Positions 1,364-25,157 of a stretch of 64,000 nucleotides of DNA are shown piece after piece (the stretch's first letter is position 1; each line of letters begins with the position of its first letter). This stretch comes from a virus. A program made the translations under genes and the position numbers. Under the pieces are notes generated by a model. The model was not told where the DNA came from. It saw nothing but the letters and a program-made list of their open reading frames with translations, and made no database searches. Where the stretch lies: IMG/VR virus record IMGVR_UViG_3300045941_000223, positions 1 through 64,000 of that record. One strand, written 5' to 3'.

Positions 1364-1628
1364 CACCGTCGAGATCGAGGTCGAGCTGGACCGCCGGGCA
1401 GGTGGTCCGATCTTCGAGTACGTCGTCCGTTTCCGCGGATCGGGCAAGCTGCTGTGCCGATCGGTGCTGCCGTTCTTCGGTGCGTGCCGGGCGCTGGCCG
1501 AGCAGGGTTACCCGCCGTCCACCCGGGTGGAGATGTGGCGGCCGGGCATGCGGCATTGGGATCTCGCCGGTCACATCGGCGGGGCCGAGTGGTTCCCCAA
1601 CAAACCGGAGCTGCCGTTCGTACCATGA
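1350..1628 (+). CDS. Hypothetical protein
   Basis: ORF overlapping the terL start (ATGA). Confidence 0.55.
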   Translation: MSAPDTVEIEVELDRRAGGPIFEYVVRFRGSGKLLCRSVLPFFGACRALAEQGYPPSTRVEMWRPGMRHWDLAGHIGGAEWFPNKPELPFVP

Positions 1629-3139
1629 GCGAAGCCGAGAAAGTCGCGAAGTGGATTGGGGACTACTGCTACGTTCCTGAAGGTCGCTTCTTGGGCCAGC
1701 AGGTCAAGCTGCAGGACTGGCAAATTGATCTGCTTGTCGAGATTTACGACCGGCCGGGCGGTTGCCGCCGGGCGATCCTTTCCATCCCGCGCAAGAACGG
1801 CAAGACCGCGTTCTCGGCGTTCCTTCTGCTGGCCCACCTGATGGGCCCGCGCATGGTGCCGAACTCGCAGCTCTACTCGGCGGCGCAATCGCGCGAGCAG
1901 GCGGCGCTGATCTTCTCGCTGGCCTCGAAGATGTGCCGGATGAACCCGCGGCTGAACGAAGTCGTGGTGATCCGCGATTCGCTCAAGGAGCTGTTCGTTC
2001 CGGAGGTCGGCGTCAAATACAAGGCGCTCTCGGCCGAAGCCTCCACCGCCTACGGCCTGTCGCCGGTGTTCATCGTCCATGACGAGCTGGGGCAGGTCCG
2101 CGGACCCCGCTCGGCGCTGTACGAAGCGCTGGAGACCTCGACCGGCGCGCAAGAGAATCCGTTGTCGCTGGTGATCTCCACGCAGGCACCGAACGACGGC
2201 GATCTCTTGTCCATCCTGATCGACGACGCGCTCGCCGGGAACGATGCGCGCACGTTCTGCCAGCTCTATACCGCGCCGCTCAATGCCGACCCGTTCGCGA
2301 TCGAAACCATTCGCATGTGCAATCCGGCGCTCGGCACCTTTCAGAACGAGCAGGAAGTGCTGGCGATGGCCGCCGACGCCAAGCGCATGCGGGCGCGCGA
2401 GCCGGAATTCCGCAACCTCGTCCTCAATCAGCGAGTCGAGGCGCTGGCGCAATTCGTCAGCCCGTCCGACTGGAAACTGTGCGACGCCGAGCCGGTCGAG
2501 CTGGACGACACCATGCCGATCTACGCCGGGCTCGATCTCTCGGAGGTCTCCGATCTCACCGCGCTGGTTTTGATCGGCAAGGTCGGCAAGGTCTGGCAGG
2601 TGTGGCCGACGTTCTGGCTTCCGGAAGTCGGGCTCGCCGACAAGGCCCGCGCCGATCACATCCCGTACGACCTCTGGCACCAGCAGGGCTTCCTGAAGAC
2701 CACGCCCGGGCGCGCGATCAGTTACGAGCACGTCGCGCACGATCTCCGAAAAATCTGCGACTCGTATCGAGTCAAAAAGATCGGCTTCGATCGCTGGAAC
2801 TACAAGCACCTGAAGCCGTGGTTGCTGCACGCTGGCTTCGTCGAGGACAAGCTCGAAGAGCAGTGGGTCGAGTTCGGGCAGGGAACGCAGAGCATGTCGC
2901 CCGCGTTGCGTGATCTGGAAAGCCTGATCGCCAATGCGGAGCTGGCACACGGCAACAACCCGGTGCTGACCATGTGCGCGATGAACTCGGTGGTCGAGGG
3001 CAAGGACAAGGCCAACCGCAAGCTCTCCAAGTCGCGATCGACCGGCCGCATCGACGGCATGGTGGCGCTCGCCATGGCGGTCGGCGTGGTGCCGGTCGCC
3101 GACAAGGCGGGCGTCGATATCGCGGCGCTGATCGGATGA
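1625..3139 (+). CDS. terL: Terminase large subunit
   Basis: Walker A IPRKNGKT, Walker B FIVHDE, ISTQ coupling motif, nuclease GLDLS...FDRWN...IDG; likely start ATG 1625. Confidence 0.95.
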   Translation: MSEAEKVAKWIGDYCYVPEGRFLGQQVKLQDWQIDLLVEIYDRPGGCRRAILSIPRKNGKTAFSAFLLLAHLMGPRMVPNSQLYSAAQSREQAALIFSLASKMCRMNPRLNEVVVIRDSLKELFVPEVGVKYKALSAEASTAYGLSPVFIVHDELGQVRGPRSALYEALETSTGAQENPLSLVISTQAPNDGDLLSILIDDALAGNDARTFCQLYTAPLNADPFAIETIRMCNPALGTFQNEQEVLAMAADAKRMRAREPEFRNLVLNQRVEALAQFVSPSDWKLCDAEPVELDDTMPIYAGLDLSEVSDLTALVLIGKVGKVWQVWPTFWLPEVGLADKARADHIPYDLWHQQGFLKTTPGRAISYEHVAHDLRKICDSYRVKKIGFDRWNYKHLKPWLLHAGFVEDKLEEQWVEFGQGTQSMSPALRDLESLIANAELAHGNNPVLTMCAMNSVVEGKDKANRKLSKSRSTGRIDGMVALAMAVGVVPVADKAGVDIAALIG

Positions 3140-4923: not shown

Positions 4924-5990
4924 TCTTCTGGATCGCTCCCGAGTACGGCAATATGTGCATCGACAACTGCTCGCTGAGCGCGCTCGATCTGTCGTCGATC
5001 GATCCCACCATCCGCATGGTGCAGTGGCAGGAAAATGCCGGGCGCATCGAACGCAAAACCGGTCCGGCATTGCGCGAGGTCTTTCTCGATCCGATACCCT
5101 ATCTGCCGTCGTTCGACCTGTTCATCACCACGCTGAACGGGCAAGCGCCGCCGATCACGCTCGATCAGGCCAAGAAGATCAAGATCGATCTCAATCGCGC
5201 CATCTTCGACGCCAAGCGACAGGCACCGATCGAATATCTCGCGAAGACATGGGACGCGACCGACGACGAAGTGACCGCGATGAATAGCGAGCTGTCGATG
5301 GTCTCGGCACTGAGCGGCGGCGGCTCTGCGACCGATATCATCACGCTGTCCAACAACCTGAACCAACTCGCCTTCGAAGTTAACAGCCGCGTGGTCGCGC
5401 CCGGCAACAATGCCGATGGCAACATCTGCCAGCAGGTGAACTTCAATGTACGGGGCGCGGTCAATACCATCGTCGATCAGGCGAATTATTCGCTCGCCTA
5501 CAACAAGTCGCTGGTGATCGGCGCGGTCAATGCCGACGTGGTGACGCCGCTCAAGGACAACACCTTCCCGAAGATCCAAGGAAAGTTCGATGCGTACGAA
5601 ACCCGGTTCGAAGCGGCGAGCTGGCCCGGCGGCGTGCCCGGCGACTATCCACCCGATCCGCCCAACATCACGCCGATCAACGACGGGGTATATATTCCGA
5701 GCGGAATCACACAGCTTGCCGCCGCGCTGAGCGCCCCGCCCGGCATGACCAACGTCACCGTACCGGCAGGCGGCGGCGATCCGGCTGATACGACCATCGA
5801 GTGGTATGCGCTCGGCGAGCTGACGCCCACCGTGCTCACGGTCGTGGAGTTCTCCGGGCTGATCAACACCATCAGCGCGCGACGGGCAGTGCTGGCGCAG
5901 ACGCAGCGCACCAAGCGCGCGGAAATTCTCGCATGCAGCACAGTCGCACAAGTAATCGCCATCGACCTCGCCAGCGGCTGGCCGACGTAA
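4920..5990 (+). CDS. Tail-fibre-associated protein
   Basis: N-terminal IRMVQWQENAGRIE and C-terminal AEILACSTVAQVIAIDLASGWP resemble tail-fibre assembly proteins. Confidence 0.55.
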   Translation: MIFWIAPEYGNMCIDNCSLSALDLSSIDPTIRMVQWQENAGRIERKTGPALREVFLDPIPYLPSFDLFITTLNGQAPPITLDQAKKIKIDLNRAIFDAKRQAPIEYLAKTWDATDDEVTAMNSELSMVSALSGGGSATDIITLSNNLNQLAFEVNSRVVAPGNNADGNICQQVNFNVRGAVNTIVDQANYSLAYNKSLVIGAVNADVVTPLKDNTFPKIQGKFDAYETRFEAASWPGGVPGDYPPDPPNITPINDGVYIPSGITQLAAALSAPPGMTNVTVPAGGGDPADTTIEWYALGELTPTVLTVVEFSGLINTISARRAVLAQTQRTKRAEILACSTVAQVIAIDLASGWPT

Positions 5991-6009: not shown

Positions 6010-7962
6010 GTGCGATCGGCACTGGCCCGGACTGCGGGTCAGATTGAGACCACACTGTTGCACGCTCCGAACAGAAATCTCTGGAAGATAGCCAGCGCGC
6101 AGGCGCTGGCGAGGCTCGATCGTCCGCAGCAATGGGCGGTCGCGCAGGCGAAGGCGAAGAAGATCCTTGGCATCTCGCTGCTCGGTCCTGACGTGGTCGA
6201 GTTGCGGGAGTTCGATCCCAACCAGCCACGCGACGAGCACGGCCGCTGGACGGACACCGGGGCAGGCGACGGTGGCGGGCTCGCCGAAGACACGCCCGGG
6301 GGATACGAGCCCGAGCTAGATCCGGAAGTCGTCAACGTCGGCGGCGACAAGTGGAACAAGGACACCGCCGTCCATCTGGAGCGCGAGTACCAGATGGCCA
6401 AGCCGAAGCTCAGCAAGATCGAGAGCGAGGCGGTCGGCAAGTATCCACGGGGCAAGCCGCCATCGCAGCTTCTGGAGTGGAGCGAGCTGAGCAAGGACGA
6501 CCGAGAAGATGTCAAGAACCAATGGATGGAGAAGCAGGTTCCGTTCTACCACAAGAACGAGGTCGGTCACTGGAAGGCAAATGACGGGGTCAGCGACGCC
6601 AAGGACAAGGTGACCGACGACTTCAACGACCGGACGACGATGATTTGGGCCGCAAAGGCGATCAACGAGTATTTCGAGGAAATGGAATCGAAGCTGACCG
6701 AGCAGGCCGACCGACCTTCCGACAGCGCCGAGGTTCAGGCAGCGCTGCACGCCGAGATCCCGTTCGAGGCCGCACAGCTTCTCGATGCCGTCCGTCTGGA
6801 ATATGACCGGGACGCCGACGACCCGGCAATCACCGTCAAATGGGACGACAGCAAATTGCAGGAACCGGCGTACGGTCCAAAGCCGGGCGCTCTGTTTGAT
6901 CCAGATCAGCAACGATTGCCCGGCATCGAAGAGCCGAAGAAGCCGGATATGTCCAAGCTGCTGACCGATAAATACCGCAAGGATCTGGCCGCGCAGATCG
7001 AGCTTGCGGCATTTGAGGAAGTCAAGGATGTGCGCGATGCGATGGAGCCGCCGGAATATCTGCTGGATGCCGCAAAGGAGGCCGCCGACGCCGATTGGGA
7101 AGGCTTGAGCGATAACAGCAAGTTGTCCTACGCCCAAAACTTCGCCGCGGACGAAGAGACGAGGAACCCGCCGGTGCCATGGGTCCGGGCGGTTCCGGAG
7201 AGCTACGATCCGCTCAATGAGACGGTCGGGTTGGACTACAAAGATACGCAAGGCATGGCGCGGCACATGAGCATCGAGCGGGCCGCCGATCTGCTGATCG
7301 AGCGCGACATAGTCAACCCGGCCAATCGCATCGATATCGTCAAGCGCATCGCCTCCATCGATCGCAAGCTGTGGGAAGATTGGAAATCAAGCTCGACCAC
7401 TCAAAACGGCAAGCTGCTGCAGATCGCGGTCGCGGATGAATTGAACGGCCGTCTCAATATGAAGACGCGCGACACCATGAATCAAATGGAGACGAAGACC
7501 TACGCCAACAAGCAATTCAAAGAGATCGGCGGCTACGCGGGCGTGCGCGCCTACGTGCGCGCGAAGTGGGAAACCACGCAATTCATGCTCGACAAGGCCG
7601 ATGTCAAGGAGCTGAGCCTGTACCGCTCCATCGATCTCGACATGGATACTCTCGGTCCGCATCTGACGAAGTCGAAAGAGATCGGTGGCCATCATTACCT
7701 GCCGAGCATCGCGGTCCAGCGCAACGGTGCGGCTTCGACCACCATCGACAGCAAGGTGGCCAACGATTGGGGCGACGGGCAGACGCGCGTCGTGCTCCGC
7801 GCGCTGGTGCCGCGCACCGCGGCGGTGTCGGTCCCGGCCTACGGCGTGAACATCCAGAGCGAGCATGAGGTCGTGATCGCAGGCACCGCGTGGAAGGGCT
7901 GGGACGCGTGGCACCGTCGCGCCCCGAGCCTTCTTGAGATCGAGCTGCAGCGGGCCGCCTGA
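6010..7962 (+). CDS. PRD-GRWT-tagged effector 1: C-terminal R-S-E ADP-ribosyltransferase-like
   Basis: FDPNQPRDEHGRWTD at 6211; LYRS...ASTT...SEHEVV motifs at about 7618-7875. Confidence 0.75.
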   Translation: MRSALARTAGQIETTLLHAPNRNLWKIASAQALARLDRPQQWAVAQAKAKKILGISLLGPDVVELREFDPNQPRDEHGRWTDTGAGDGGGLAEDTPGGYEPELDPEVVNVGGDKWNKDTAVHLEREYQMAKPKLSKIESEAVGKYPRGKPPSQLLEWSELSKDDREDVKNQWMEKQVPFYHKNEVGHWKANDGVSDAKDKVTDDFNDRTTMIWAAKAINEYFEEMESKLTEQADRPSDSAEVQAALHAEIPFEAAQLLDAVRLEYDRDADDPAITVKWDDSKLQEPAYGPKPGALFDPDQQRLPGIEEPKKPDMSKLLTDKYRKDLAAQIELAAFEEVKDVRDAMEPPEYLLDAAKEAADADWEGLSDNSKLSYAQNFAADEETRNPPVPWVRAVPESYDPLNETVGLDYKDTQGMARHMSIERAADLLIERDIVNPANRIDIVKRIASIDRKLWEDWKSSSTTQNGKLLQIAVADELNGRLNMKTRDTMNQMETKTYANKQFKEIGGYAGVRAYVRAKWETTQFMLDKADVKELSLYRSIDLDMDTLGPHLTKSKEIGGHHYLPSIAVQRNGAASTTIDSKVANDWGDGQTRVVLRALVPRTAAVSVPAYGVNIQSEHEVVIAGTAWKGWDAWHRRAPSLLEIELQRAA

Positions 7963-9443
7963 TGGTCGAGACTCTGAAGGTCGATATTCTGCAGACGGAG
8001 CTGGAGCAGAATCTGCCCTACTGGCTCGATCCGTCGCAGAAGAACGCCGAGCGGCACGCCGAGATCCGCGCCAAGCACCGGCAGCGATGGCTCGACGAGC
8101 AGAAGCGCGAGAAAGGCTGGAAGCGGGCCAAGCAGGACGCGTGGTTGCTGCTCCGCAAGTATGACGAAAGCGAGCACCCGCGGGACGAACGCGGACGCTG
8201 GACCGATGCAGGCGGCGGTGACGGTGGTAAGCCCGACGTTGGCACCGGCTCCGAGAAGTCCAAGGGCGACTGCATGTCGGCCGCCTACAAATGGATCAAG
8301 GAGCATCCGGAGGAAACGCTGGTCCACGGCATGGTCACCAGCGACGGCAAGCGCTTCCCGCACGCGTGGGGTGAGGACAATGACGGCAACGTCCACGAGG
8401 TCAGCAACGGACAGAACGTGGTCGTGCCGCGGGCCGAGTACTACGAGCGCTTCGAGGTCAAGCCGGACGATCCCGCCGAGTATCACCGCTACACGCACAC
8501 CGAGGCGCTGGTCCAGTCGGTGCGGGCAGGGCATTATGGCCCATGGGATATCAGCGAGGAAACGGTCGATCTCGATCGGCTCGAAGAGAGCACCGGCGGC
8601 GGCTACCGCAAGCCCGGCAAGAAGCCCAGCGATCTATCGGATTTTCTCGGCAAGGAACGGGTGCAGATTTCCGACAATGTGGACGATCCTCACAACCTGA
8701 TCAAGAATTGGAACAAGTACATCGGCATGGACCCGGAAGAGTTCGCCGATAGTTTTTTCGGCGCGAGGTACAAGCCGCAAATGACGGTCAGCTACGGTGC
8801 GGGTCAAATCTATGTCGATGCCTTGCTGCAGAATCCAAGGACCGGAGAACATCTCGCATCGGTGTCGCGGTTTATCAACGGTCCGAAGAACCGGGCCACC
8901 GCATCGTTCTTCGAGGTTGACTCGGCTCAGCAGGGCAAGGGCATCGGCAAGCAGGTGACCGCCAGTAACGTGAAAATGTACGCAGACCTTGGCATCACCG
9001 AGGTTCACGCACGCTGCAACATCAATGTAGGCGGATATGCGTGGGCGAAGTACGGCTACGTGCCACGCGATCGAGAGGCATGGGAGGAATTGGCCGATAA
9101 GGTTCAGGAAAAGCTCGAAAACATGGACGAAGATGATGTCTCGGACCAAGAGCGCGAAACGATCATCGAGCTAATCGACAATCCAGATCCCAAGGCGGTG
9201 TGGGCGATTGCTGATTCCGAGGTCGGCAAGGAGCTGCTGACCGACACCGAGTGGGACGGCGTGCTCGACCTGACCGACAAGGAAGTGCTCGAACGGCTGA
9301 ACGCCTACATCGGCACCAACATCAAGCCGGTGAAACCGAAGCCTTTCGACGACGAAGACGACGATGATGATTTCGACCGGCCGGTGACGGTCAGGCCGGG
9401 CGATGAAGATGATGATGACGATGACGATCGCATCGACCCATAA
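7962..9443 (+). CDS. PRD-GRWT-tagged effector 2: Cys-His peptidase/transglutaminase-like + GNAT
   Basis: YDESEHPRDERGRWTD at 8160; GDC...LVHG...HAW; QQGKGIG acetyl-CoA motif and VGGYAWAKYGY; acidic tail. Confidence 0.75.
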   Translation: MVETLKVDILQTELEQNLPYWLDPSQKNAERHAEIRAKHRQRWLDEQKREKGWKRAKQDAWLLLRKYDESEHPRDERGRWTDAGGGDGGKPDVGTGSEKSKGDCMSAAYKWIKEHPEETLVHGMVTSDGKRFPHAWGEDNDGNVHEVSNGQNVVVPRAEYYERFEVKPDDPAEYHRYTHTEALVQSVRAGHYGPWDISEETVDLDRLEESTGGGYRKPGKKPSDLSDFLGKERVQISDNVDDPHNLIKNWNKYIGMDPEEFADSFFGARYKPQMTVSYGAGQIYVDALLQNPRTGEHLASVSRFINGPKNRATASFFEVDSAQQGKGIGKQVTASNVKMYADLGITEVHARCNINVGGYAWAKYGYVPRDREAWEELADKVQEKLENMDEDDVSDQERETIIELIDNPDPKAVWAIADSEVGKELLTDTEWDGVLDLTDKEVLERLNAYIGTNIKPVKPKPFDDEDDDDDFDRPVTVRPGDEDDDDDDDRIDP

Positions 9444-11232
9444 GACCGGTGAGCTGTTCTACGTCGATGACGCAGGCGAGCGGCAGGACGCTTCGCTGCA
9501 TCAGGAAATCCTCGACGAAGGCGATCATCTCCGCGCGCTCGCGGTCTCGCGCAAGGTCATGCGGCGGCTCGGGCTCGATCCCGACGTGCTGCTCAAGCAG
9601 AAGGCATTCGATCCGTCGCAGCCGCGCGACGAGCACGGGCGATGGACCGATACCGGCGGGTCGGACGACAGCCTCGCCGAAGATACGATCGGCGGCTACG
9701 ACCGCATCCCCGGGCTTCCGCCCGGCACCAAGATCCGCGATCCGAGTGACAGCATCGCCACCGCGCTCAATCGCGACGCGTTCGATATGACCGCCGAGAA
9801 GAAAGAGCGCGGACCGTTCGACGACGGCGACACCTACCATCTGACCATCACGTCGAAGCTCGCTCCCGGCATCGAGCCATTCGAATCTCGGCCGGGCCAG
9901 ACCCGCTACTATGATCCCCGGCTGGCGCGTCTGGAAACCATCGACGCCGGGACAATCATAGAGAGGACTTATGCGAGACCGAAAGACACAGACGCGACGG
10001 AAATCCAGCCGCTCGAAGGCGAGAAAATCATCTATCGCGGCATCTCGGCGGAAGAGTACCAAGCGATCCTCGAAACCGGCAAAGTCTCGTCGAAGGGCGA
10101 ATACAACATCGGTGAGGACCAGCGAGGACTGACCTACTGGACGACAAAGCCCAACACGGCGGCGTCCTACGCCAGCGGCTTCGCTCCATGGCAATTCGCG
10201 CCAACCTTCACCAAGCCCGCCTACGTGATCGCCGCCCGCATGCCGGAAGAAACCCGCGAGGTTCCCGGCACCGGCGAGAACGAGGTCGGCGTCGCCCGCC
10301 CGATCGAGCGGAGCGAGCTGCTGGCGGTGTGGCGGGGCGATGTCTACTCGCACACGCCGGGCGAGATCGATCTGAAGCAGATCGGCTCTTCCGATACCTA
10401 CCGGATGGGCTCGGCCTCACATCCGAACAGCCCCGTGGTCTGGAGCCGGGAAGATCAGGGTCTCGCCGAGGACACGGTTGGCTATGCCAACCCTGCCGAA
10501 GAGACCACCGAGAAGGCCACGGTCGGCGGCCGGACCTACCCGGTGCGCGACAACAAGAACCACGTGATTGATACCTCCCGCATGCGCGGGGCGGCGATCG
10601 TCTATGACGACAACACGGTGTCGATCCTGCACGTCACCGACACCCCGGAGCGGGTCGAGCAAGGGCTGAACGATGCGCCCGAGGATCTGACCACCGCCTT
10701 CGGCAACGTCGGCGACGATCTCGGCGCTGGCTTCTACGGTTCCGCAGTGCCGCAAATCTGGATGTCACGATCGGCGGGCAAGTGGGACTTCCTGTCGAGC
10801 ATGACCAGCGCGCAGAAGCAGGACTACGTGACCTACCTGCGCGGCAAGATCGAACAGCAGCGCTCGGTGAAGTACATCACCGCCAACGAGTACGAGCGCG
10901 CGGTCCGCGATCTCGGATACTTCGAGAGCGGGCAGACCGACTACATCACATGGTCCGCCGAGCAGCCCTACAACATCGAGTCGTGGAAGCCCGAGACGCT
11001 GGCCACGCTCGGCATCACCCCCGGCAAGCAGCCCGAGGTCATGGACATTCGCCTGCGGGGGAGGTTCGTCGATCTCACGGCCGGGGGCTTCCGGCAGTCC
11101 GACGTGGAAGAGCTGCAGAAGCGCGGGTACGACGGTGCCTACGTGCAGGGCTCATTCTCGTACACCCCGCAATTCGTGATCTGGAACAAGGCGGCGATCA
11201 CCGAGATCAAGCGCTCCAAGCATGCCCGTTGA
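9421..11232 (+). CDS. PRD-GRWT-tagged effector 3: two ADP-ribosyltransferase-like domains
   Basis: FDPSQPRDEHGRWTD at 9607; IYRGIS...YWTT...A..YA...ENEVGV; second domain HVT...LGAGFY...GYDG...QFVIWN (ART-PolyVal-like). Start uncertain (9403-9421). Confidence 0.65.
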   Translation: MTIASTHKTGELFYVDDAGERQDASLHQEILDEGDHLRALAVSRKVMRRLGLDPDVLLKQKAFDPSQPRDEHGRWTDTGGSDDSLAEDTIGGYDRIPGLPPGTKIRDPSDSIATALNRDAFDMTAEKKERGPFDDGDTYHLTITSKLAPGIEPFESRPGQTRYYDPRLARLETIDAGTIIERTYARPKDTDATEIQPLEGEKIIYRGISAEEYQAILETGKVSSKGEYNIGEDQRGLTYWTTKPNTAASYASGFAPWQFAPTFTKPAYVIAARMPEETREVPGTGENEVGVARPIERSELLAVWRGDVYSHTPGEIDLKQIGSSDTYRMGSASHPNSPVVWSREDQGLAEDTVGYANPAEETTEKATVGGRTYPVRDNKNHVIDTSRMRGAAIVYDDNTVSILHVTDTPERVEQGLNDAPEDLTTAFGNVGDDLGAGFYGSAVPQIWMSRSAGKWDFLSSMTSAQKQDYVTYLRGKIEQQRSVKYITANEYERAVRDLGYFESGQTDYITWSAEQPYNIESWKPETLATLGITPGKQPEVMDIRLRGRFVDLTAGGFRQSDVEELQKRGYDGAYVQGSFSYTPQFVIWNKAAITEIKRSKHAR

Positions 11233-13027
11233 TCCGCACCCGCAAGAGACCCGTACCGATTTCATGAACCGGTGCTGCTTCGAAACCGGTCGCGCCGAGC
11301 CCGGGTGGAGCAACGACGCCGTGGCGGCGGCCTGCTTCAGCGCATGGGGGCGCTCGCGCGCCAACAAGCAGGCGGCATGGCAAAACGCTCGGGGAAGGGC
11401 CATATCTACCCTGCGGTTCGACCCGAACCAGCCGAGAGACGAATATGGCCGATGGACCGACGCAGGCGGATCAGGACTTGCTGAAGGACTTGACGAAGGA
11501 AGACCGGGAGCTGGTGCTGTCCACGGTGAAAAATCACCCCGGCCTTTCGATCGAAGAAGCCCTACGGATGTTGAAAGCAGCCGGAATGTAGTCGCGGTCT
11601 GGACCCGCGGCAGTCACACATTCCATGAGCTGAACGCTGACGGTGCCGGGCGCTTCAGCGTCGCCATCCAATCGGCCAAACATTCCAATCCGTACGGGGC
11701 GTCGGTCCACGCCTACCCGACCAGAGCCTACGAGTACATGCGGACGTTCGTGTCGCCGAACGGCGACTACGGCTTCGCCCTCAAGGGCGACGATATCGTC
11801 TCGCTGTTCAAGAACCCGAACTCGGATCAGCCCGGTGTGGCTGGCGCGGCGATCGACCTCGCCGTACAGCAAGGCGGCCGACGCGCCGACGCATTCGATA
11901 CCGTCCTGCCGGACCTCTACGCCAAGCACGGCCTGCGGGTGGTCGCGCGCCTCGCGTGGGACGACAAGGAAGCACCGCCCGGCTGGGACAAGAAGACCTA
12001 CCAGAAGTTCAACAACGGCGAGCCGGACGTGGTGTTCATGGTCTACGACCCGGCCTCGACGACCTATACCGCTGGGCAGGGCGAGCGGGTGGACGAGTAC
12101 GACGACGGCAAGGCGACGCAGGACCGGGAGCTGGAGGCGATCGACGCCGCCAAGCCACCGGAACCGCCGCCGCCACCGAGACCGGAGCAGCCGCGGTTTG
12201 GATTCGGGGAGGCCGATCCCAAGCTGGAGATCAACCGGCAGATATCGGCCGATTACGTGCTGCGAGAAGGCAGGCGCACCGACACCGAGCACCTGCGCTG
12301 GATCGATCTGGCCACCGGCGAGCTGTCACCGGAGATCGAGGAAGGTACCGAAAAGGAAGTCGGCTTCGGGCCCGAGCTGGGAAAGGCGCTGGACGATCCG
12401 TCCCGCGCGATCGAGGTTGATCACAATCACCCGAACTCCAGCCCGCTCTCGGTGCAGGATCTGGCCATTCTCAGCACCAAGCCGGGATGTTACGGCGTGC
12501 GGGCGCTCGGCCACGACGGCAGCATCTATGCCGCCAGCCGACCAGCGAGGCATGACATTCGTGGCGCATTCAAGAAGGCGAGGGGGGCGCAGTACACCGA
12601 CGCCGACGAGTTTCTGGTCGATGAGATCACGTCGGAAAAGATGGAGCCGGATCGGGGTACGAAGATTTTCTTCCATGCCGTCAGCGATGCGCTCGGACGC
12701 AACGGCTGGTTCGATTACGGCTTCCGCCTCGCGCCCGATCTCCAGCGCGATATCGATCGGCTGAGCAAGGAGTACAACGCACTGGTCGCCGACATGCAGA
12801 AACGCGCCGGGCCGCCGCCGACGTTCGCAGGCAGATCGATCGATATCGATTGGGAGAAGTACCCGGTGCCGAATGCCTTCATCGATCCGCCCGGCGAGTA
12901 CGAGCCGCTGGACGAGTGGATCAGCTATCGGAAGGAACTCGACGAGCTGAGCCATCTCCCCGGCATCGAGCCGTTCAAGCAGGAAGCCGACGAAATCATC
13001 GAGCGCAAGCGGAGGCAGCAGAAATGA
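11222..13027 (+). CDS. PRD-GRWT-tagged effector 4: capsid-like N-domain + GNAT-like + JAB/MPN
   Basis: FDPNQPRDEYGRWTD at 11417; DIVSLF...GGRRADAFDTVLPDLYAKHGL; HNHPNSSPLSVQD JAB motif at about 12422. Confidence 0.7.
   Translation: MPVDPHPQETRTDFMNRCCFETGRAEPGWSNDAVAAACFSAWGRSRANKQAAWQNARGRAISTLRFDPNQPRDEYGRWTDAGGSGLAEGLDEGRPGAGAVHGEKSPRPFDRRSPTDVESSRNVVAVWTRGSHTFHELNADGAGRFSVAIQSAKHSNPYGASVHAYPTRAYEYMRTFVSPNGDYGFALKGDDIVSLFKNPNSDQPGVAGAAIDLAVQQGGRRADAFDTVLPDLYAKHGLRVVARLAWDDKEAPPGWDKKTYQKFNNGEPDVVFMVYDPASTTYTAGQGERVDEYDDGKATQDRELEAIDAAKPPEPPPPPRPEQPRFGFGEADPKLEINRQISADYVLREGRRTDTEHLRWIDLATGELSPEIEEGTEKEVGFGPELGKALDDPSRAIEVDHNHPNSSPLSVQDLAILSTKPGCYGVRALGHDGSIYAASRPARHDIRGAFKKARGAQYTDADEFLVDEITSEKMEPDRGTKIFFHAVSDALGRNGWFDYGFRLAPDLQRDIDRLSKEYNALVADMQKRAGPPPTFAGRSIDIDWEKYPVPNAFIDPPGEYEPLDEWISYRKELDELSHLPGIEPFKQEADEIIERKRRQQK
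11445..11591 (+). CDS. Overprinted 48-aa ORF nested in effector 4 (+1 frame)
   Basis: MADGPTQADQDLLKDLTKEDRELVLSTVKNHPGLSIEEALRMLKAAGM*; GAGAG upstream; helical pattern. Confidence 0.55.
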   Translation: MADGPTQADQDLLKDLTKEDRELVLSTVKNHPGLSIEEALRMLKAAGM

Positions 13028-14136
13028 CCGCCACCGTCGATGGACGCCCGGCCACGCTGGCCTACTTCAAGGGCGAGTTCGATCCGGCGAGCGAGGCCGA
13101 CGCCACCTTGGTGCAAATCACCTTCATGGACGCCCGCGGCGGATCGCACTTCTACGTGCCCGATCCCGCCAAGCGCGAAGCCGAGAAGCGATCGATCCAA
13201 TGGAAGCGGGCCAAGGCCAGAGCGCAGGTGTTGCTGCGCGAGTTCGACGAGAGCAAGCATCCGCGCGACGAGCGCGGACGCTGGACGGACGGCGGGGGCG
13301 GCGACGACAGTCTCGCCGAGGACACCGAGAGCGGGTACGGGAAGAACCCGACCGCCACCGAGATTTACGAGAGCTACAAAACGCCGACGATGGAAGAAGT
13401 GCGGGCGCGGCTGAGCCCGCGTGATATCGAAGAGATCGATCAGGCCAAGCGCGATATGGAAGGTCGCATTCCGACCATGGCGCAATTCAAGCAACCGGAC
13501 GGCAAGTACACTCCGGAACGCGTGGCAGTGCACGCCGACATTATCAAGAACAAGATGAAGCTGTTCAGCCCGGAGAACATTGCCAAGTACACGCCACCAG
13601 CAGGCGAGAAGCCATTGGTGACGCTGGTCGGTGGGCGACCAGCCAGCGGCAAAACCACGTCGCTACCGGCTGAAATTATGGAATCGAGCCTATATATATC
13701 CGCAGACGACGTGCAGGAACATTTGCCCGGATACGAGCCCCGGCTGGCTGGCCTGTTCAACGGCGAGGCGCAAGAGATTGGCGATCGTATCGAAGAGATG
13801 GCCCGCGAGCTGAAGATCAACGTCATCTTCGATTCGACTATGAAGACGCAAAAAACCGCCGCCGGGCGGCTTGCGGCCTACCAGCAGGCGGGTTACGAGG
13901 CGGACGGGTACTTCGTCAGCACGTCGCCGATCGAATCGGCCGTGCGGACGGTCGGCCGGTTCCGGCACAAGAAGGGCGACTACAGCGGGCGGTTCGTGCC
14001 GCCGGAAGTGACGATCGCCAGCACGACCAACGAGAAGACATTCGACTCGCTGAAGTCGGAGTTCCGGAGCTGGAAATTGTTTGATAACAACGGGGACAAG
14101 CTCAAGCTGGTCGCCGAAGGTGGAAAAGGGAAGTAG
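13024..14136 (+). CDS. PRD-GRWT-tagged effector 5: zeta-toxin-like P-loop kinase
   Basis: FDESKHPRDERGRWTD at 13243; GGRPASGKTT, ISADD, NVIFDSTM, GRFVP motifs. Confidence 0.8.
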   Translation: MTATVDGRPATLAYFKGEFDPASEADATLVQITFMDARGGSHFYVPDPAKREAEKRSIQWKRAKARAQVLLREFDESKHPRDERGRWTDGGGGDDSLAEDTESGYGKNPTATEIYESYKTPTMEEVRARLSPRDIEEIDQAKRDMEGRIPTMAQFKQPDGKYTPERVAVHADIIKNKMKLFSPENIAKYTPPAGEKPLVTLVGGRPASGKTTSLPAEIMESSLYISADDVQEHLPGYEPRLAGLFNGEAQEIGDRIEEMARELKINVIFDSTMKTQKTAAGRLAAYQQAGYEADGYFVSTSPIESAVRTVGRFRHKKGDYSGRFVPPEVTIASTTNEKTFDSLKSEFRSWKLFDNNGDKLKLVAEGGKGK

Positions 14137-14139
14137 GCC

Positions 14140-14319
14140 ATGAAGCCATTGCCAAAGCGCACCGACCGCGGGCCGCTCATCGTCGAGACGCCAGCCGGTC
14201 CGCTCTACGCGGACGACACCTATGGCGAGGGATTTAACCCTCCGAAGCCGGATGATCCGTTGATGCAGGCGATCAGGCAGGGGATCGCCGAGGACAAGGC
14301 CAAGGCCGGGAAGTCCTAG
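14140..14319 (+). CDS. Small protein downstream of the zeta-like gene (candidate antitoxin)
   Basis: 59-aa ORF MKPLPKRTDRGPL...AGKS*, 3 nt after the zeta-like stop; below the ORF-track cutoff. Confidence 0.5.
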   Translation: MKPLPKRTDRGPLIVETPAGPLYADDTYGEGFNPPKPDDPLMQAIRQGIAEDKAKAGKS

Positions 14320-14519
14320 GCCGCGTTGGCCGTGGTTTCGGTCTCTTTGCTCTCCCAGCAGGCCAGATGACCGTTCCATCGGATCGTATGGTTACCGAAC
14401 ATCACGCGGACCTCGCGCAAGGTCAGGTTGGCGGGAACCAACCCCATCAGCGTGCCGTTCGCTCCGACGACTTTAACGAGCCGGGCCGTCACCGGTCCGT
14501 CTCTGATCAGGCGGGTCAT
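14316..14519 (-). CDS. Hypothetical protein
   Basis: Strong GGAGG RBS, directly downstream of a repeat promoter. Confidence 0.6.
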   Translation of the reverse strand: MTRLIRDGPVTARLVKVVGANGTLMGLVPANLTLREVRVMFGNHTIRWNGHLACWESKETETTANAA

Positions 14520-14543
14520 TAGTCTTACCTCCCTTCCAATACT

Positions 14544-14573
14544 AATATAGGGCGTAATGGCCTACATTTCAAG
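14544..14573 (-). promoter_or_regulatory. Sigma70-type promoter with TAGG-N9-CCTA operator
   Basis: CTTGAAA-N17-TATATT on the - strand; dyad 14548-14564. Confidence 0.8.
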
Positions 14574-14831: not shown

Positions 14832-14854
14832 GGGAACCTCCGCATCTGCGGCAA

Positions 14855-15660: not shown

Positions 15661-15674
15661 CAGATGATCTCCCT

Positions 15675-15893: not shown

Positions 15894-15907
15894 GTCAGTC
15901 CTCTCGC

Positions 15908-21048: not shown

Positions 21049-23304
21049 ATGCCGATGAAGCCAAAGGATGGCGAGAGCCGATCGGATTTTCTCAGCCGCT
21101 GCGTCCCCGAGATGATGGGTGACGGGAAGCGCGAGAAGGATCAGGCGGTCGCAGCCTGCATCAGCATGTACGGGCAGAAGGGATACCTCGAAGCGGGCGG
21201 GCACTGTGAGCCAGAGCCCGGCGAGGACTACAACGATTTCATCGAACGCTGCATCGATGAAGGTGGCGACGAAGAAGAGTGCCACCTGATCTGGGAAGAC
21301 GAGGGCGAGAAGTCCGCCAGCGGCCGTCGCCTCAAGCACAAGACGCACGCGTCGCCGAGCGAGAGCGGGATGATGTTCATCCTGAGCGACGACACGCCCG
21401 ATCGGATGGGCGACGTGATCGTGGCCGAGGGCTGGGATCTTACGAACTTTCGAAAAAATCCCGTGGCTCTCTTCAATCACAATCCGGATTTTGTGATCGG
21501 CATGTGGAAGTCGTTGTGGATCGAAGGCAATTCTCTGCGCGGGCATCTGCAGCTCGCGCCCGAGGGAACCTCCGCTCGCATCGACGAGATCCGCAAGCTG
21601 GTCGATGCAGGAATCTTGCGTGCCACTTCGGTCGGCTTCCGTCCGATCGACAGTGAACCGCGCAAGTCGTCGGAGCCGATGGGCGGCATCACCTACAAGC
21701 GTTGCGAGCTGATCGAGACCTCACTGGTCGCGGTGCCAGCCAACCCCAACGCTCTGGCGGTCGCCAAGTCACTCCGCGTTTCGTCCGGGACGATCGATCT
21801 CGTTTTTGCCAAGCACGGCAAGGGAAACGGGAACGCTCGCCGGGGCGCTCACGGCAAGCACGCCGACACGTCTCGAAGTGGAAAGTCCAAAGCCATGACT
21901 ACACTGGCGCAACGCGTCACAGACGCACAGGCCCGGTTGCTGAACTTGCGTGACCAGCTCACCGAGCATCTGAAGTCCGTCGATGACACTGCCGTCACCG
22001 ACGAGCAGATCACGCTCACCAACGAACTCAATGCCAAGATCACGCAGGAAGAGAAGGGGCTTGGCGCTCTGCGTGACGCCGAAGCGAGGCTGGCCAGCGC
22101 GGCCAACAACGCCAGCGGCGGCGGCGACGGCGGTAACGGTGGCGGCACCGTCGTGAAGAATGGCGGCAGCGTCGATACCGCCAAGCGGCCGTTCGGCCTG
22201 CCGGTGCGCAAGATGGACCCGCTCGAATATCTCGTTCGCGCGGGCACCGTGCGCTATATGTCGAAGGTCACCGGCGACAGCATCGACGTTTGCCGACAGA
22301 AGATTTACGGCAACGACGAAGCCACCAAGGTGATCGTCGATTACTGCGCCAAGGCGGCAAGCGCTCCAGCGTTGACCACGGTTGCGGGCTGGGCGGCCGA
22401 GCTGGTCCAGCAGGTCAACGCGTCGTTCATGGAAACCCTGCAGCCGCAGGCGGTGTTTCCGCAGTTGTCGGCACTCGGCATGTCGCTGAGCTTCGGGCGC
22501 AACGGTCGCATCGCCGTTCCGACTCGGGCGGCGACGCCGACCATCGCGGGATCGTTCGTCGGTGAAGGTCAGCCGATCCCGGTCCGTCAGGCCGCATTCT
22601 CGTCGGTGCTCTTGACCCCCAAGAAAATGGCCGTGATCACCAGTTGGTCCAGAGAGATTGACGAGCATTCGGTGCCCGCGATCGAGGGCTTGCTGCGCAA
22701 CGCGATCCAAGAGGACACCGCGGTGTCGATCGACTCGGTGCTGCTCGACAGCAACGCGGCGACCGCCATCCGTCCGGCTGGCATTCGCAACGGCGTGGTC
22801 GGTCTCACGCCGACCGCGGGCGGCGGGTTCGCCGCACTGGTGGGCGATATCAAGCAGCTCACCGGCGCACTGCTGACGGCCACCAACGGCAACATCCGCA
22901 ACATGGCCTTCATCATGAACCCGCAGCAGGCGCTGAGCATCAGCCTGATCCAGCCACCAGTCCCGGGCGGGCTGTTCCCGTTTGCCGACGAAGTGGCGGC
23001 CGGGCGGTTGCGCGGTGCCAAGCTGATCACGTCCGGCACCGTGCCGGTCTCCACCGTGATCTGCATCGACGCTGCGGACTTCGTGGTGGTCGGAGGCGAA
23101 GCCCCTCGCTTCGAGATCAGCGATCAGGCGACGCTTCATATGGAGGATACGACTCCGCTGCCGATCGTCGCGGGCACCACCGCTGCCGATCCGACGCGTT
23201 CGTTGTGGCAGACGGATTCGCTCGCTCTGAGGCTCATCCTTCCTCTGAATTGGGCTCTCAGGCGCACCGGCACCGTCTCTTGGCTCACCGCGGTCACGTG
23301 GTGA
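21049..23304 (+). CDS. Prohead protease (HK97/S78-like) fused to major capsid protein
   Basis: DRMGDVI...NPVALFNH...SVGF...ETSLVAVPANPNA; coiled-coil delta-like region; HK97-fold motifs FVGEGQPIP, LTPKKMAVI, SLWQTDSLALR. Confidence 0.93.
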   Translation: MPMKPKDGESRSDFLSRCVPEMMGDGKREKDQAVAACISMYGQKGYLEAGGHCEPEPGEDYNDFIERCIDEGGDEEECHLIWEDEGEKSASGRRLKHKTHASPSESGMMFILSDDTPDRMGDVIVAEGWDLTNFRKNPVALFNHNPDFVIGMWKSLWIEGNSLRGHLQLAPEGTSARIDEIRKLVDAGILRATSVGFRPIDSEPRKSSEPMGGITYKRCELIETSLVAVPANPNALAVAKSLRVSSGTIDLVFAKHGKGNGNARRGAHGKHADTSRSGKSKAMTTLAQRVTDAQARLLNLRDQLTEHLKSVDDTAVTDEQITLTNELNAKITQEEKGLGALRDAEARLASAANNASGGGDGGNGGGTVVKNGGSVDTAKRPFGLPVRKMDPLEYLVRAGTVRYMSKVTGDSIDVCRQKIYGNDEATKVIVDYCAKAASAPALTTVAGWAAELVQQVNASFMETLQPQAVFPQLSALGMSLSFGRNGRIAVPTRAATPTIAGSFVGEGQPIPVRQAAFSSVLLTPKKMAVITSWSREIDEHSVPAIEGLLRNAIQEDTAVSIDSVLLDSNAATAIRPAGIRNGVVGLTPTAGGGFAALVGDIKQLTGALLTATNGNIRNMAFIMNPQQALSISLIQPPVPGGLFPFADEVAAGRLRGAKLITSGTVPVSTVICIDAADFVVVGGEAPRFEISDQATLHMEDTTPLPIVAGTTAADPTRSLWQTDSLALRLILPLNWALRRTGTVSWLTAVTW

Positions 23305-23415: not shown

Positions 23416-23700
23416 ATGGCCGATCAAGCAGAGACCGCGGCGAGGAAAGTCATCGCGGAAAACAAGGCAGCCCGCACAGCGGCGGTGAAGGAGGGCAACC
23501 CGGCAGAGGGGAGCACGCCGACGCCGACGCAGGAAGAGAACGATCTCGCCAAGCTCGGCGTGGTCGTTGATCCGAAGGCCGACGACGGTTCCGGACCGGA
23601 GATGCAGATGCAGATGGTCCGGCGGACAGTCGAGGCCAAGCCAGCGCAGGCTGGCTACGCCACCCGCAGCGTCGCACCAGCTTCAAAGCCGAAGGAATGA
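23416..23700 (+). CDS. Hypothetical head-associated protein
   Basis: PTPTQEENDLAKLG; AGGAG RBS. Confidence 0.7.
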   Translation: MADQAETAARKVIAENKAARTAAVKEGNPAEGSTPTPTQEENDLAKLGVVVDPKADDGSGPEMQMQMVRRTVEAKPAQAGYATRSVAPASKPKE

Positions 23701-25157
23701 GCAGAGTTCGTAGGCTCATATCTCGTCTCGGCGGCGCGTTGGTTCAGCGCGCCGCCGAAGGCGAATATCGCCCCGGTCCGTACCATCTTCCGGTCACGGG
23801 CGGCTGGCTCAGCGCCGAGGCCGGTCAGTACTGGAATTGGTGGCAGAACGGATACGATGTCGAAAGCCGATCGAGTCAGTCGGCCATGGTCGAGGCGTGC
23901 GTCTCGGCCTACGCACAGACCGTTGCAATGTGCCCGGGGGATCACTGGCGCGCGAACACCAAGGGCGGACGCGACCGGATCATCAACTCGTCGCTCTCGC
24001 GCGTGCTGCGCAAGCCGAACTACTACCAGAGCATGAGCGACTTCATGCTCAATGCCACCCGCTCGCTCTATCTCGACGGCAATGCCTATGCGCTGGCGGT
24101 GCGCAATGATCGCTACGAGATCGTCGAATTGCACCTGATGGACCCGCGCCAGTCCACTCCGATGGTCGCGCGCCAGACCGGCGATGTGTTCTATCGCTTG
24201 GGCGGCAATGACGTGATCGATTACCGGCTCGGCTATCAGCTCGGTTACGAAGAGACGCTGGTGCCGATGCGCGACGTGCTGCACATCCGGCTGCACAGCG
24301 GCAAACGGCATCCGCGCCCGTTGTTGGGCGAGTCGCCATTGACTGCGGCGCTGGCCGATCTGGCGGCATCGTCGGCGATCCTCGATCAGCAGATCCAGTT
24401 CTACATGAACCAAGCGCGGCCGAGCGCCGTGCTGTCCACCGATCTGGTGCTCTCGCCCGAGCAGACGGCGGCGCTGCGGGATCGCTGGAACGAGCAGGCC
24501 AAGGGGCTGTGCTCCGGTGGCGTTCCGATCCTGACCGCCGGGCTGAAGGTGCAGCCGTGGGGGCAGAGCCCGAAGGACTCCGAGCTGGCGGAAGTGATGA
24601 AGCTGACCGATCAGAAGATCGCGCTCGCCTTCCGCGTTCCGTTGCAGATCCTTGGGCTCGGCGGACCGGCATCGTCCACCGAGATGATGATGCAATCGTG
24701 GATCGCCACCGGTCTCGGCTTTGCGCTGAACCACATCGAGGAATCATTCGGCCTGCTGTTCGAGTTGCGCGGTCAGCCCGACGAGTACGTGGAGTTCGAT
24801 ACCGCAGCATTGCTGCGCACCGCCTTCAAGGATCGCATCGACGCGCTGGTGCGCGGTGTGCAGGGCGGCGTCATGGCTCCGAACGAGGCCCGAAATCTCG
24901 AAGGCTACGATTCCGTACCGCATGGATCGGAGCCGAGAGTGCAGCAGCAGGTTGTCCCGCTTTCGGCTGCGGCAGCAATTCCTGCCGCGCCGCCGTCACC
25001 CGGACAGCCGTCGTCTGCTGCGCAGAAGATCACCGAAGAGAAGCCCGAACCCAAGCCCGAGCCGAAACCGGCGAAGGACTATGCAAATGACCTCCAACGG
25101 GAAATCCGAAACATTCGGTCAGCCGCCGAGCGAATCGCACGCCGACGTACTGCTTGA
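23697..25157 (+). CDS. Portal protein (HK97 family)
   Basis: VEACVSAYAQTVA, GNAYA, VLHIR, GESPL, IALAFRVP, PNEARNLEG. Confidence 0.93.
   Translation: MSRVRRLISRLGGALVQRAAEGEYRPGPYHLPVTGGWLSAEAGQYWNWWQNGYDVESRSSQSAMVEACVSAYAQTVAMCPGDHWRANTKGGRDRIINSSLSRVLRKPNYYQSMSDFMLNATRSLYLDGNAYALAVRNDRYEIVELHLMDPRQSTPMVARQTGDVFYRLGGNDVIDYRLGYQLGYEETLVPMRDVLHIRLHSGKRHPRPLLGESPLTAALADLAASSAILDQQIQFYMNQARPSAVLSTDLVLSPEQTAALRDRWNEQAKGLCSGGVPILTAGLKVQPWGQSPKDSELAEVMKLTDQKIALAFRVPLQILGLGGPASSTEMMMQSWIATGLGFALNHIEESFGLLFELRGQPDEYVEFDTAALLRTAFKDRIDALVRGVQGGVMAPNEARNLEGYDSVPHGSEPRVQQQVVPLSAAAAIPAAPPSPGQPSSAAQKITEEKPEPKPEPKPAKDYANDLQREIRNIRSAAERIARRRTA

Follow-up and report, generated by a model that had tools for sequence, protein, structure and literature searches.

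The question raised by this locus is why five consecutive genes of one phage, encoding different enzyme modules, should each carry a copy of the same short peptide (the tag). The window is a 64,000-nt stretch, positions 1 to 64,000 of IMG/VR record IMGVR_UViG_3300045941_000223, and the genome analysed is the complete 77,254-bp genome of this uncultured phage. From 6010 to 14136 on the plus strand five translationally coupled ORFs follow one another, with overlaps of 1, 41, 11 and 4 nt between successive genes, and each contains one tag copy and one or two modules. The array sits downstream of the terminase, i.e. among virion and packaging genes:

1454..3139, plus strand: large terminase, context (phrog_9, 5e-117)
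6010..7962, plus strand: effector gene 1 (ORF, 650 aa)
7962..9443, plus strand: effector gene 2 (ORF, 493 aa)
9403..11232, plus strand: effector gene 3 (ORF, 609 aa)
11222..13027, plus strand: effector gene 4 (ORF, 601 aa)
13024..14136, plus strand: effector gene 5 (370 aa, counted from the ATG overlapping the gene 4 stop)
14140..14319, plus strand: 59-aa ORF coupled to the zeta gene (gene 5), candidate immunity or antitoxin partner
21049..23304, plus strand: prohead protease (S78)-scaffold-major capsid polyprotein with two N-terminal Cys-pair mini-domains, context
23697..25157, plus strand: portal protein, untagged, context (phrog_12, 3e-79)

The 59-aa ORF matched no family model. A terminator-like hairpin lies just past it, at 14318-14338.

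The pattern (F/Y)D-x3-4-PRDE-x-GRWTD is present in all five proteins at residues 65-73, with the F/Y codons at 6211, 8160, 9607, 11417 and 13243. The first-pass annotation had placed five overlapping or coupled tagged genes at these positions, and ORFs, regular expression and profile all confirm it:

6211..6255, plus strand: tag copy 1, FDPNQPRDEHGRWTD (profile E 3e-16)
8160..8207, plus strand: tag copy 2, YDESEHPRDERGRWTD (profile E 4e-14)
9607..9651, plus strand: tag copy 3, FDPSQPRDEHGRWTD (profile E 2e-17)
11417..11461, plus strand: tag copy 4, FDPNQPRDEYGRWTD (profile E 2e-15)
13243..13290, plus strand: tag copy 5, FDESKHPRDERGRWTD (profile E 1e-13)

The residues invariant among the five copies are L-x3-D-x3-4-P-R-D-E-x-G-R-W-T-D-x-G. 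A profile built from 132 tags and searched against all six frames of the genome at E<=10 matched exactly the five array copies and nothing else (E 2e-17 to 1e-13), while the expression RD..G[RK][WFY], applied to six frames of the 77,254 bp, returned the five tags and one unrelated out-of-frame match. At the DNA level the copies vary at synonymous sites (Arg as CGC, CGG or AGA; GAG or GAA; GGC, GGA or GGG), which indicates that the peptide is kept by selection and not by recent homogenisation of DNA; recent gene conversion as the source of tag identity is ruled out by the same differences. They also bear on the idea that the tag is mainly a recombination seam for module swapping, with little function as a peptide. 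Modules do move freely from one tagged protein to another, and the tag is always where they join, but an invariant peptide in five synonymously different copies, protein-level conservation across phyla and DNA too diverged to guide homologous exchange make this the least probable of the explanations considered here.

Two features beside the tag had been remarked on earlier. The W-x-x-A-(K/R/Q) helix ahead of it is present in four of the five array genes and is not general among other tags, and the basic residue just before F/Y is common elsewhere as well, with K at -1 or at -2 in about one third each of 127 tags from other phages. In both AF2 models (genes 1 and 3) the tag is disordered (pLDDT 37-52), as expected for a linear motif. 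It had been asked at the outset whether the tag is part of a described domain; residues 1-100 of the five proteins, and with them the tag, drew no match from Pfam-A, NCBIfam or PHROG models, and no PDB chain gave a significant match to it. No description of the motif was found in the literature on polyvalent proteins, MuF toxins and NAD-ADPr, and the tag is apparently previously undescribed.

Behind the tag the proteins differ. Gene 1 encodes a helical leader, the tag, LAEDT, a long helical domain (aa ~100-400) and a C-terminal ART-like domain (aa ~400-646). Its AF2 model has a mean pLDDT of 80.5, confident over the payload and low over aa 1-100, and in VIA structure comparison aa 400-639 aligned with R-S-E ADP-ribosyltransferases (Z 4.9, rmsd 4.5, 153 residues aligned), to which all of the best 20 matches belong. 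The candidate ART residues, LYRS...ASTT...SEHEV, were read from sequence and alignment. The payload had no match in cultured phages. In gene 3 the leader, tag and LAEDT are followed by a beta-rich region and an ART-fold domain (aa ~100-360), then by a second LAEDT and a further module (aa ~370-609), the putative second ART-like domain of the original annotation; pLDDT is ~90 over aa 100-350 and poor beyond 355. Structure comparison of aa 205-360 with Tpt1 gave Z 10.4 (rmsd 2.1, 86 aligned), and of the ART domain with LT and TreX Z 9.2 and 9.0, respectively; among the matches listed, 31 chains had Z>=8 and all 50 were of the ART fold. Here the candidate ART residues, taken likewise from sequence and alignment, are IYRG...S.G...ENEVGV.

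Gene 2 consists of a leader, the tag, a Cys/His region (aa ~99-195; a putative Cys-His peptidase), a GNAT-like domain (aa ~230-455) and an acidic tail. It is a probable GNAT, judging from weak GNAT matches in a profile search of PDB (E 0.05) and from the acetyl-CoA-type motif QQGKGIGK. Gene 4 begins with a Cys-pair mini-domain leader (aa 1-44), followed by the tag, a conserved module (aa ~100-300), which is putatively GNAT-like, and a C-terminal module which contains HNHPNSSPLSVQD, a JAB/RadC-like motif (HNHP...S..D) read by eye, and which is probably a JAB peptidase. Nothing in PDB or Pfam matched gene 4, and a word search for homologues of its C-terminal half returned only itself. Gene 5 has a leader, the tag, LAEDT and a zeta-toxin kinase domain, which matches Pfam Zeta_toxin (PF06414) at 1.2e-22 (80.8 bits against a cut-off of 22.3) over aa 247-405 when numbered on the 428-aa ORF; AAA_33 matched as well, and the P-loop reads GGRPASGKTT. 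Otherwise, Pfam, PHROGs and NCBIfam gave only two uninformative PHROGs for the five proteins, and phmmer and profile searches of PDB sequences found no match for genes 1, 3 and 4 and the weak GNAT for gene 2. The initial payload calls thus hold to different degrees: zeta stands by Pfam and the ART fold of gene 3 by structure (Z 10.4), gene 1 is ART-like (Z 4.9), the GNAT of gene 2 is weak and the JAB of gene 4 is a call by motif.

These modules are not confined to the array. In relatives they are found fused in one protein between the terminase and the protease-capsid gene, fused homologues being L009, L006, P0068 and P0105. The gene 1 payload is 41% identical to the part of P0105 that lies behind a lambda-type portal and a tag; the gene 5 module shares 41% identity with the C-terminal module of P0068 (1423 aa), likewise preceded by a tag, and P0068 unites gene 3 and gene 5 modules. 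Gene 2 modules recur in tagged proteins of L008, L022, L011, L045 and L006, and the first module of gene 4 is 45-52% identical to tagged proteins L009, L006, L011, P0004 and P0042. This arrangement suggests that the array is an unfused "polyvalent protein". Like the polyvalent proteins (Iyer, Burroughs, Anand, de Souza, Aravind 2017, PMC5512222; PMC9503650), it is encoded with virion genes and has a repertoire of ART, GNAT, zeta-like kinase and JAB-type peptidase, to which the array's relatives add ParB, 2H and InPase; its modules also occur inside bona fide giant multi-module proteins. The difference is that polyvalent proteins hold 2-15 modules, whereas the array splits its modules over five coupled genes with one or two each. 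ARTs whose genes adjoin head genes and polyvalent proteins are both taken to be packaged in the virion, and injection is predicted for the latter (PMC5512222, PMC9503650); phi24B gp47 was found in virions by proteomics (doi 10.64898/2026.04.10.717836). A reiterated header tag is not mentioned in the text of PMC5512222 or PMC9503650. Not all polyvalent proteins carry the tag: aa 194-321 of gene 3 are 49% identical to the "large polyvalent protein" of the Planktothrix cyanophage Pag-Yong1, which is without it, so packaging of such proteins does not require the tag.

The survey of tag context by HMM, proposed with the original annotation, was carried out and recovered 5,558 tagged protein clusters; a giant protein can carry as many as 10 copies. 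At 76 viral loci the tagged genes have head-gene neighbours: terminases, capsid proteins, protease-capsid fusions and portals from several families. The general form of the tag is ~20 residues, (K)(F/Y)(D/N/S)Px(Q/E)PRDExGRW(T), followed by a Gly-rich linker. Modules nearly always have the tag in front of them and hardly ever at their back: of 254 tagged proteins, 123 have their first tag no more than 60 aa from the N-terminus (29 of these no more than 20 aa), only 4 have their last tag as near as 60 aa to the C-terminus, and by HMM 5 of 991 tags are near a C-terminus. Spacing from tag to tag has a median of 250 aa, about one domain. Among cultured phages, N-terminal tags are found in Mycobacterium phage Damien gp10 (MSFNPRQPRDRFGRW...) and Nocardia phage P3.1, in both between portal and capsid genes. 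A tblastn search of cultured phages with the tag, too insensitive for this purpose, gave nothing at E<=1 and, at E<=10, only matches of E 2-9, the actinophage ones being real tags on inspection. Close relatives of our phage share the order terminase, tagged genes, protease-capsid, portal. The domains most often found on tagged proteins are MuF (10 of 78), DUF7178 (7 of 78) and portal (7 of 78), with prohead protease too; in other phages the tag directly follows the HPNCRC end of the MuF domain, and direct fusions to the protease-capsid polyprotein also occur. The link to the capsid interior that had been suggested is therefore supported, by tagged genes of relatives between terminase and protease-capsid and by payloads fused behind portals, as in P0105. 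The accompanying suggestion of a separate, MuF-independent system is not, because in other phages this tag is often found behind MuF, portal and prohead-protease domains.

A tag that heads thousands of enzyme modules fused to or beside head proteins probably marks proteins which are carried in the capsid and injected. Our favoured explanation, although we hold it tentatively and at a little under even chances, is that the array is an unfused polyvalent protein, carried in the capsid and delivered together with the DNA, in which the tag is a loading header read in trans. The five genes would supply enzymes directed at the host (a zeta kinase, two ART-fold proteins and, probably, a GNAT and a JAB peptidase), produced along with the head genes. 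The tag would be a header belonging to the module behind it, and an untagged, conserved component of the assembling head would recognise it in trans and so take the module into the prohead. That the proteins are packaged in the virion and injected, and that the tag docks them, is our inference, which for loading draws on gene context and fusions. As to MuF, its absence here had been noted before and was confirmed: the five proteins had no Pfam match to it at E<=0.1, and PF04233 (Phage_Mu_F) matched nowhere in six frames of the whole genome, while control genomes did match. DUF7178 as a local partner of the tag is ruled out, as it is absent from the genome. Tagged head proteins are also absent from the genome by profile search, the portal and the protease-scaffold-capsid polyprotein both being untagged.

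In weighing loading, we counted in its favour N-terminal polarity, N-terminal constraint, head context, fusions, disorder, the shared leader of gene 4, the published view of polyvalent proteins and the fact that, with neither MuF nor a tagged head protein in this genome, any reading of the tag has to be in trans. Counted against it were the redundancy of an address in portal-, MuF- and protease-fused forms, which nevertheless keep the tag, the tagged toxin-immunity pairs in Afipia/Xanthobacteraceae chromosomes away from phage genes, the untagged Pag-Yong1 homologue of gene 3, and the variety of portals (three families or more) and of protease types found with the tag, among which one conserved docking site is hard to see. 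The tag could, in a broader form of the same idea, be a universal cargo-loading peptide of tailed phages acting in trans, like an encapsulin targeting peptide; its reader would be something conserved in the portal or the procapsid interior, any carrier would be encapsidated and co-injected, and the five-gene array would be the simplest natural form, without tagged structural protein or MuF. We regard this broader form as possible but unlikely.

It is known that short portable peptides lying next to a flexible linker direct unrelated proteins into an HK97-fold shell, examples being the T4 capsid-targeting sequence of Alt (an ART) and the internal proteins, the C-terminal targeting tail of the HK97 protease and the cargo-loading peptides of encapsulins. 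The T4 peptide is ~10 residues long, phage-specific and removed at LxE by the T4-type protease. Our tag has no sequence similarity to any of these and, compared with the T4 peptide, is longer (~20 residues), conserved across thousands of phages and reiterated within proteins; removal at (L/I)xE by a T4-type (S77) prohead protease is not matched either, the protease in the protease-capsid polyprotein here being Peptidase_S78.

The T4 system, a capsid-targeting sequence with its LxE site, is also the likeness for another explanation, in which the tag is a processing junction: the prohead protease, or a JAB or Cys-His module, would cut leaders and modules apart at the tag inside the head, and the variable leader rather than the tag would be the address. 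The tag separates modules at every boundary of the giant polyvalent proteins, where release would be needed, and stands between portal, MuF or protease and cargo. A leader of 65-73 aa precedes each array tag, leader families recur among the segments ahead of tags, and a match at E 1e-8 shows the gene 4 leader and the N-terminal end of the protease-capsid polyprotein to be homologous. LAE followed by D is found behind the tag in four of the five array genes. Extreme N-terminal tags, with nothing upstream to cut from, are however no less conserved (median 36 bits for 62 tags, against 35 bits for 752 internal ones); the protease-scaffold-capsid polyprotein, which must be cut, has no tag, different protease families are found alongside it, and 15 conserved positions are many for a cleavage site. 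LAE[DG] follows only 7 of 920 tags (LAEDT in four), three of the seven being this phage's own proteins. This explanation is, in our opinion, somewhat unlikelier still. LAEDTxxGY as a general cut site is ruled out by the same rarity, and so is a universal element ahead of the tag: 828 upstream segments fell into 522 clusters, mostly the ends of preceding domains.

The signal might instead act during exit or after delivery, either as a pilot peptide threading modules into the portal or tail channel or as a motif that some conserved factor of the infected cell, for instance a chaperone, a protease or membrane machinery, would recognise. A universal partner is suggested by how strongly the tag is conserved among phages of Actinobacteria, Alphaproteobacteria and Firmicutes; its disorder and its place N-terminal to each module would fit, and orphan chromosomal tag-toxin pairs exist without capsid genes. 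We nevertheless consider this idea improbable, as the analysis turned up neither a candidate partner nor a known host-binding motif resembling the tag, and head-gene context accounts for the data without it.

Those pairs also bear on the idea that the proteins are not virion cargo at all but late-expressed cytoplasmic effectors or toxins of the lysogen, with the tag as a boundary element of the pre-toxin type that plays no part in the capsid. Tagged toxins with immunity-like partners occur in prophages or as orphans (L065, L058, L086, L089, L093), and for the Afipia/Xanthobacteraceae pairs of L093 phage genes are absent from the surrounding 4 kb; some tagged proteins have a Tox-REase-5 or GHH-like nuclease at the C-terminus and an immunity-like gene downstream, and in our phage a 59-aa ORF lies behind the zeta gene. 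Direct fusions to portal, MuF, prohead protease and protease-capsid polyprotein, and a conserved position inside the head module, speak against it, and we find it distinctly improbable. Pre-toxin motifs, VENN in CdiA and PxxxxDPxGL in Rhs, lie directly upstream of interchangeable toxin modules, and the tag resembles them in being short, conserved and immediately ahead of such modules, but it differs in sequence, recurs ahead of each module and is associated with the heads of phages instead of with secretion systems. The MuF polymorphic toxins of temperate phages (Jamet et al. 2017, PMC5576092) likewise tie variable toxin or enzyme domains to the head module, sometimes together with an immunity gene; the array differs in lacking MuF, and its one candidate for a cognate immunity gene is the 59-aa ORF. 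The words motif, linker and cleavage are absent from the text of PMC5576092.

For an unfused polyvalent protein with a loading header, five separate one-tag genes in a complete genome with no tagged head protein and no MuF make a clean test case, in which the tag, if it acts in assembly, must be read in trans. It is generally believed that phages inject enzymes to disarm or reprogram their hosts, and how most of these get into the head has, to our knowledge, been worked out in just a few model phages. A tag of ~20 residues heading more than 5,000 clusters of such modules would be a sequence handle for injected effectors in metagenomes and would give a testable mechanism of loading or processing; if the tag is portable, it may also offer a route for loading chosen proteins into phage heads.

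The five genes of the array lie on the plus strand between 6010 and 14136 and overlap by 1, 41, 11 and 4 nt, and each carries a single copy of the tag, (F/Y)D-x3-4-PRDE-x-GRWTD, beginning at residues 65-73, exactly where the first-pass annotation had placed it. A six-frame search with a profile of 132 tags found exactly five tags in the whole genome (E 2e-17 to 1e-13). The five DNA copies differ in synonymous codons, which indicates that the tag peptide itself is under selection; that it is a mere recombination seam seems to us very improbable. About 10 residues past the tag, genes 1, 3 and 5 have LAEDTxxGY, which recurs at the opening of the second half of gene 3. LAE[DG] follows the tag in 7 of 920 cases (LAEDT in four of the 920), three of the seven being this phage's own proteins, and we treat LAEDTxxGY as a local feature of this phage.

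The IMG/VR record behind the window is 77,254 bp long and complete by CheckV, and its first 64 kb make up the window. Its gene content is that of a contractile-tailed phage in which genes for sheath, tape measure and baseplate come after the portal, and its nearest prophage relatives are found in Bradyrhizobium, Afipia and Xanthobacteraceae genomes. A prophage of Bradyrhizobium sp. BRP22 (NZ_JADYVX010000002, about 109-117 kb) shares synteny with locus L020. The features of the window other than the tagged genes include:

1454-3139, large terminase
3798-4412, collagen-repeat, fibre-like gene, between terminase and effector array
14562-14831, minus strand, HTH-like gene, 89 aa
14873-15658, minus strand, LPD29 (large polyvalent protein associated domain 29) protein, Pfam 2.7e-24
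21049-23304, S78 prohead protease - scaffold - capsid polyprotein
23697-25157, portal
24856-26682, second collagen-repeat, fibre-like gene, directly after the portal

Two genes of 168 and 356 aa at 4417-5990 gave no family match. In phages with a 55-59% identical protease-capsid polyprotein the terminase is followed by the tagged gene(s), then by protease-capsid and finally by the portal. In the window a 6.7-kb block of small leftward genes (14316-21000, minus strand) stands between the tagged genes and the capsid gene and interrupts this otherwise conserved order.

A strict pattern search of IMG/VR retrieved 76 loci with the tag; when 1.84 billion cluster representatives were searched with the profile, 5,558 proteins had the tag at E<=1e-3 and 903 at E<=1e-10. 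In giant proteins, 2-3.8 thousand residues long, the tag occurs up to 10 times, and the median distance between tags is 250 residues. In 123 of 254 tagged proteins no more than 60 residues separate the N-terminus from the first tag (no more than 20 in 29 of them), and in four of the 254 no more than 60 separate the last tag from the C-terminus. C-terminal to the tag there is a Gly-rich stretch, and the segments upstream are heterogeneous, mostly the end of a preceding domain such as the HPNCRC end of MuF (Phage_Mu_F). From this polarity, the spacing, the Gly stretch and the heterogeneity upstream we infer a repeating unit of tag, flexible linker and one domain. Copies at the very N-terminus of a protein reach scores like those of internal ones (36 vs 35 bits). 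A longer variant, (R)(A/E)FDES(E/K)HPRVPAG-x-P-x-GG-x-F followed by a Gly run, occupies module boundaries alongside the canonical tag at two tag-carrying loci (L036, 5644-6600; L095, 2963-4510) and is missed by the strict pattern.

The tag falls outside every Pfam, NCBIfam and PHROG model, has no significant match among PDB chains and goes unnamed in the literature searched. Residues 82-100 of PDB 9RKU chain Af contain SQPRDASGRFAYSGGPGSM, a weak match to the tag profile (E 0.45); this chain is a trimeric protein from the baseplate core of Agrobacterium phage 7-7-1 (PMC12796354). If real and resolved, the match would be the sole structure with the tag motif in place. Culturable examples of the tag are gp10 of the cluster H Mycobacterium phage Damien (L082, 5995-6768), which starts with it as MSFNPRQPRDRFGRW..., and a protein of Nocardia phage P3.1 (L083, 5007-5717), which starts with MARRKFNPRQPRDLRGRW... 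Past the tag both are very basic and of low complexity, and their annotation as 'capsid maturation protease' looks doubtful.

The payloads proposed in the first-pass annotation were largely right, firmest for the zeta kinase of gene 5 and the ADP-ribosyltransferase (ART) fold of gene 3, modest for gene 1 and weak for gene 2. Pfam identifies gene 5 as a zeta-toxin kinase (1.2e-22). The AlphaFold model of gene 3, built on a 17-row alignment, is confident at residues 100-350 and poor over the C-terminal 240 residues; the 50 matches listed for its residues 205-360 are all structures of the ART superfamily (31 chains at Z>=8), the best being Tpt1 (Z 10.4), heat-labile enterotoxin (Z 9.2) and the Rhs toxin TreX (Z 9.0). 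The gene 1 model is confident from residue 100 onward and consists of a long helical domain and a C-terminal domain; every one of the 20 structures most similar to the latter is an R-S-E ADP-ribosyltransferase, at modest scores (Z up to 4.9 over about 150 residues); the R / S-T-T / E-x-E pattern is present in the sequence. Gene 2 has weak GNAT matches by profile search (E 0.05) and contains a QQGKGIGK motif. Module 1 of gene 4 is conserved in other tagged proteins and has no detectable known relative in the searches made; module 2 carries HNHPNSSPLSVQD, which may be read as a JAB/RadC-type metal site. The helical part of gene 1 (aa 108-380, window 6330-7150) splits the region homologous to the gene 2 GNAT-like part at loci L008, L022, L006, L017 and L045, and behaves like an inserted or separable domain.

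The link of the tag to the phage head comes from its fusions and neighbors. In 78 tagged proteins of viral contigs, Phage_Mu_F (10), DUF7178 (7) and portal (7) are the most frequent Pfam domains; next come InPase, ART-PolyVal, topoisomerase IB, DRAT, zeta toxin and prohead protease. Untagged neighbors found repeatedly encode terminases, portals from several families, protease-capsid fusions and capsid proteins. The system had been called MuF-independent, which holds for the genome of the window and fails for the tag in general, since elsewhere the tag is fused to MuF. Modules of the array also occur joined: tagged protein P0105 is a lambda-type portal followed by the tag and the gene 1 payload, one ORF at L009 combines module 1 of gene 4 with the gene 1 payload, P0068 has module 1 of gene 3, the tag and a gene 5-like zeta domain, and a giant ORF (L010/L013) repeats the tag and a domain resembling the gene 1 C-terminus at least nine times. 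As the same modules are found fused elsewhere, the array can be viewed as a polyvalent protein (as defined by Iyer et al. 2017) in disaggregated form. In that study and its 2022 sequel, polyvalent proteins and ARTs beside head genes were argued to be packaged and injected (PMC5512222, PMC9503650), and the polyvalent protein gp47 of phi24B was detected in virions by proteomics (2026 preprint, doi 10.64898/2026.04.10.717836). The capsid-cargo reading is plausible, with support from genomic context, and the tag as an address is put forward as a hypothesis. Action of the tag during or after ejection is improbable.

In six portal fusions the tag separates the portal domain from the module joined to it, and at L036 a tag-ParB module precedes the protease-capsid polyprotein itself. 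A processing junction, the main rival explanation and in our opinion an unlikely one, would account for retention of the tag in portal-, MuF- and protease-fused forms, as well as for the leaders upstream of the tag in the window genes. However, it leaves N-terminal tag copies unaccounted for, and the single polyprotein which this phage has to cleave is without the tag. In the AlphaFold models of genes 1 and 3 the leader is of poor confidence and the tag disordered (pLDDT 37-52). Residues 1-44 of gene 4 (11222-11353) are similar to the N-terminal part of the protease-capsid polyprotein (21049-21280), at 36% identity with E 1e-8, and less strongly to a second copy at its residues 54-76. This mini-domain, P-x-x-E-x-x-DF-x-x-RC ... 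AAC-x-x-x-(W/Y), is also present upstream of tags inside polyvalent proteins P0010, P0006, P0039 and P0078.

Chromosomes of Afipia and Xanthobacteraceae carry pairs of a tag-toxin and an immunity-like gene in regions free of phage genes (L093), and these count against a purely capsid role. A non-virion toxin role is quite improbable. The L093 pair (3890-4905, Afipia massiliensis DSM 17498 chromosome) is flanked by housekeeping genes. Small tagged proteins followed by a small ORF are present at L093, L086, L088, L089, L094 and L098, and such pairs also lie within prophage contigs L065 and L058; their layout is a short coiled leader or an N-domain of about 120 aa, the tag, and a small toxin-like C-terminus (for example ...DGHHFVP...).

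New here are the fully unfused form of the system, its freedom from MuF, the lack of a tagged structural protein and the mini-domain common to gene 4 and the protease-capsid polyprotein. The polarity and disorder of the tag, a conservation that does not fall off at the very N-terminus, and the lack of a tagged head protein or MuF in this genome lead us to favor, tentatively and at somewhat less than even confidence, a reading in which the tag would be the header of the downstream module, recognised in trans during head assembly.
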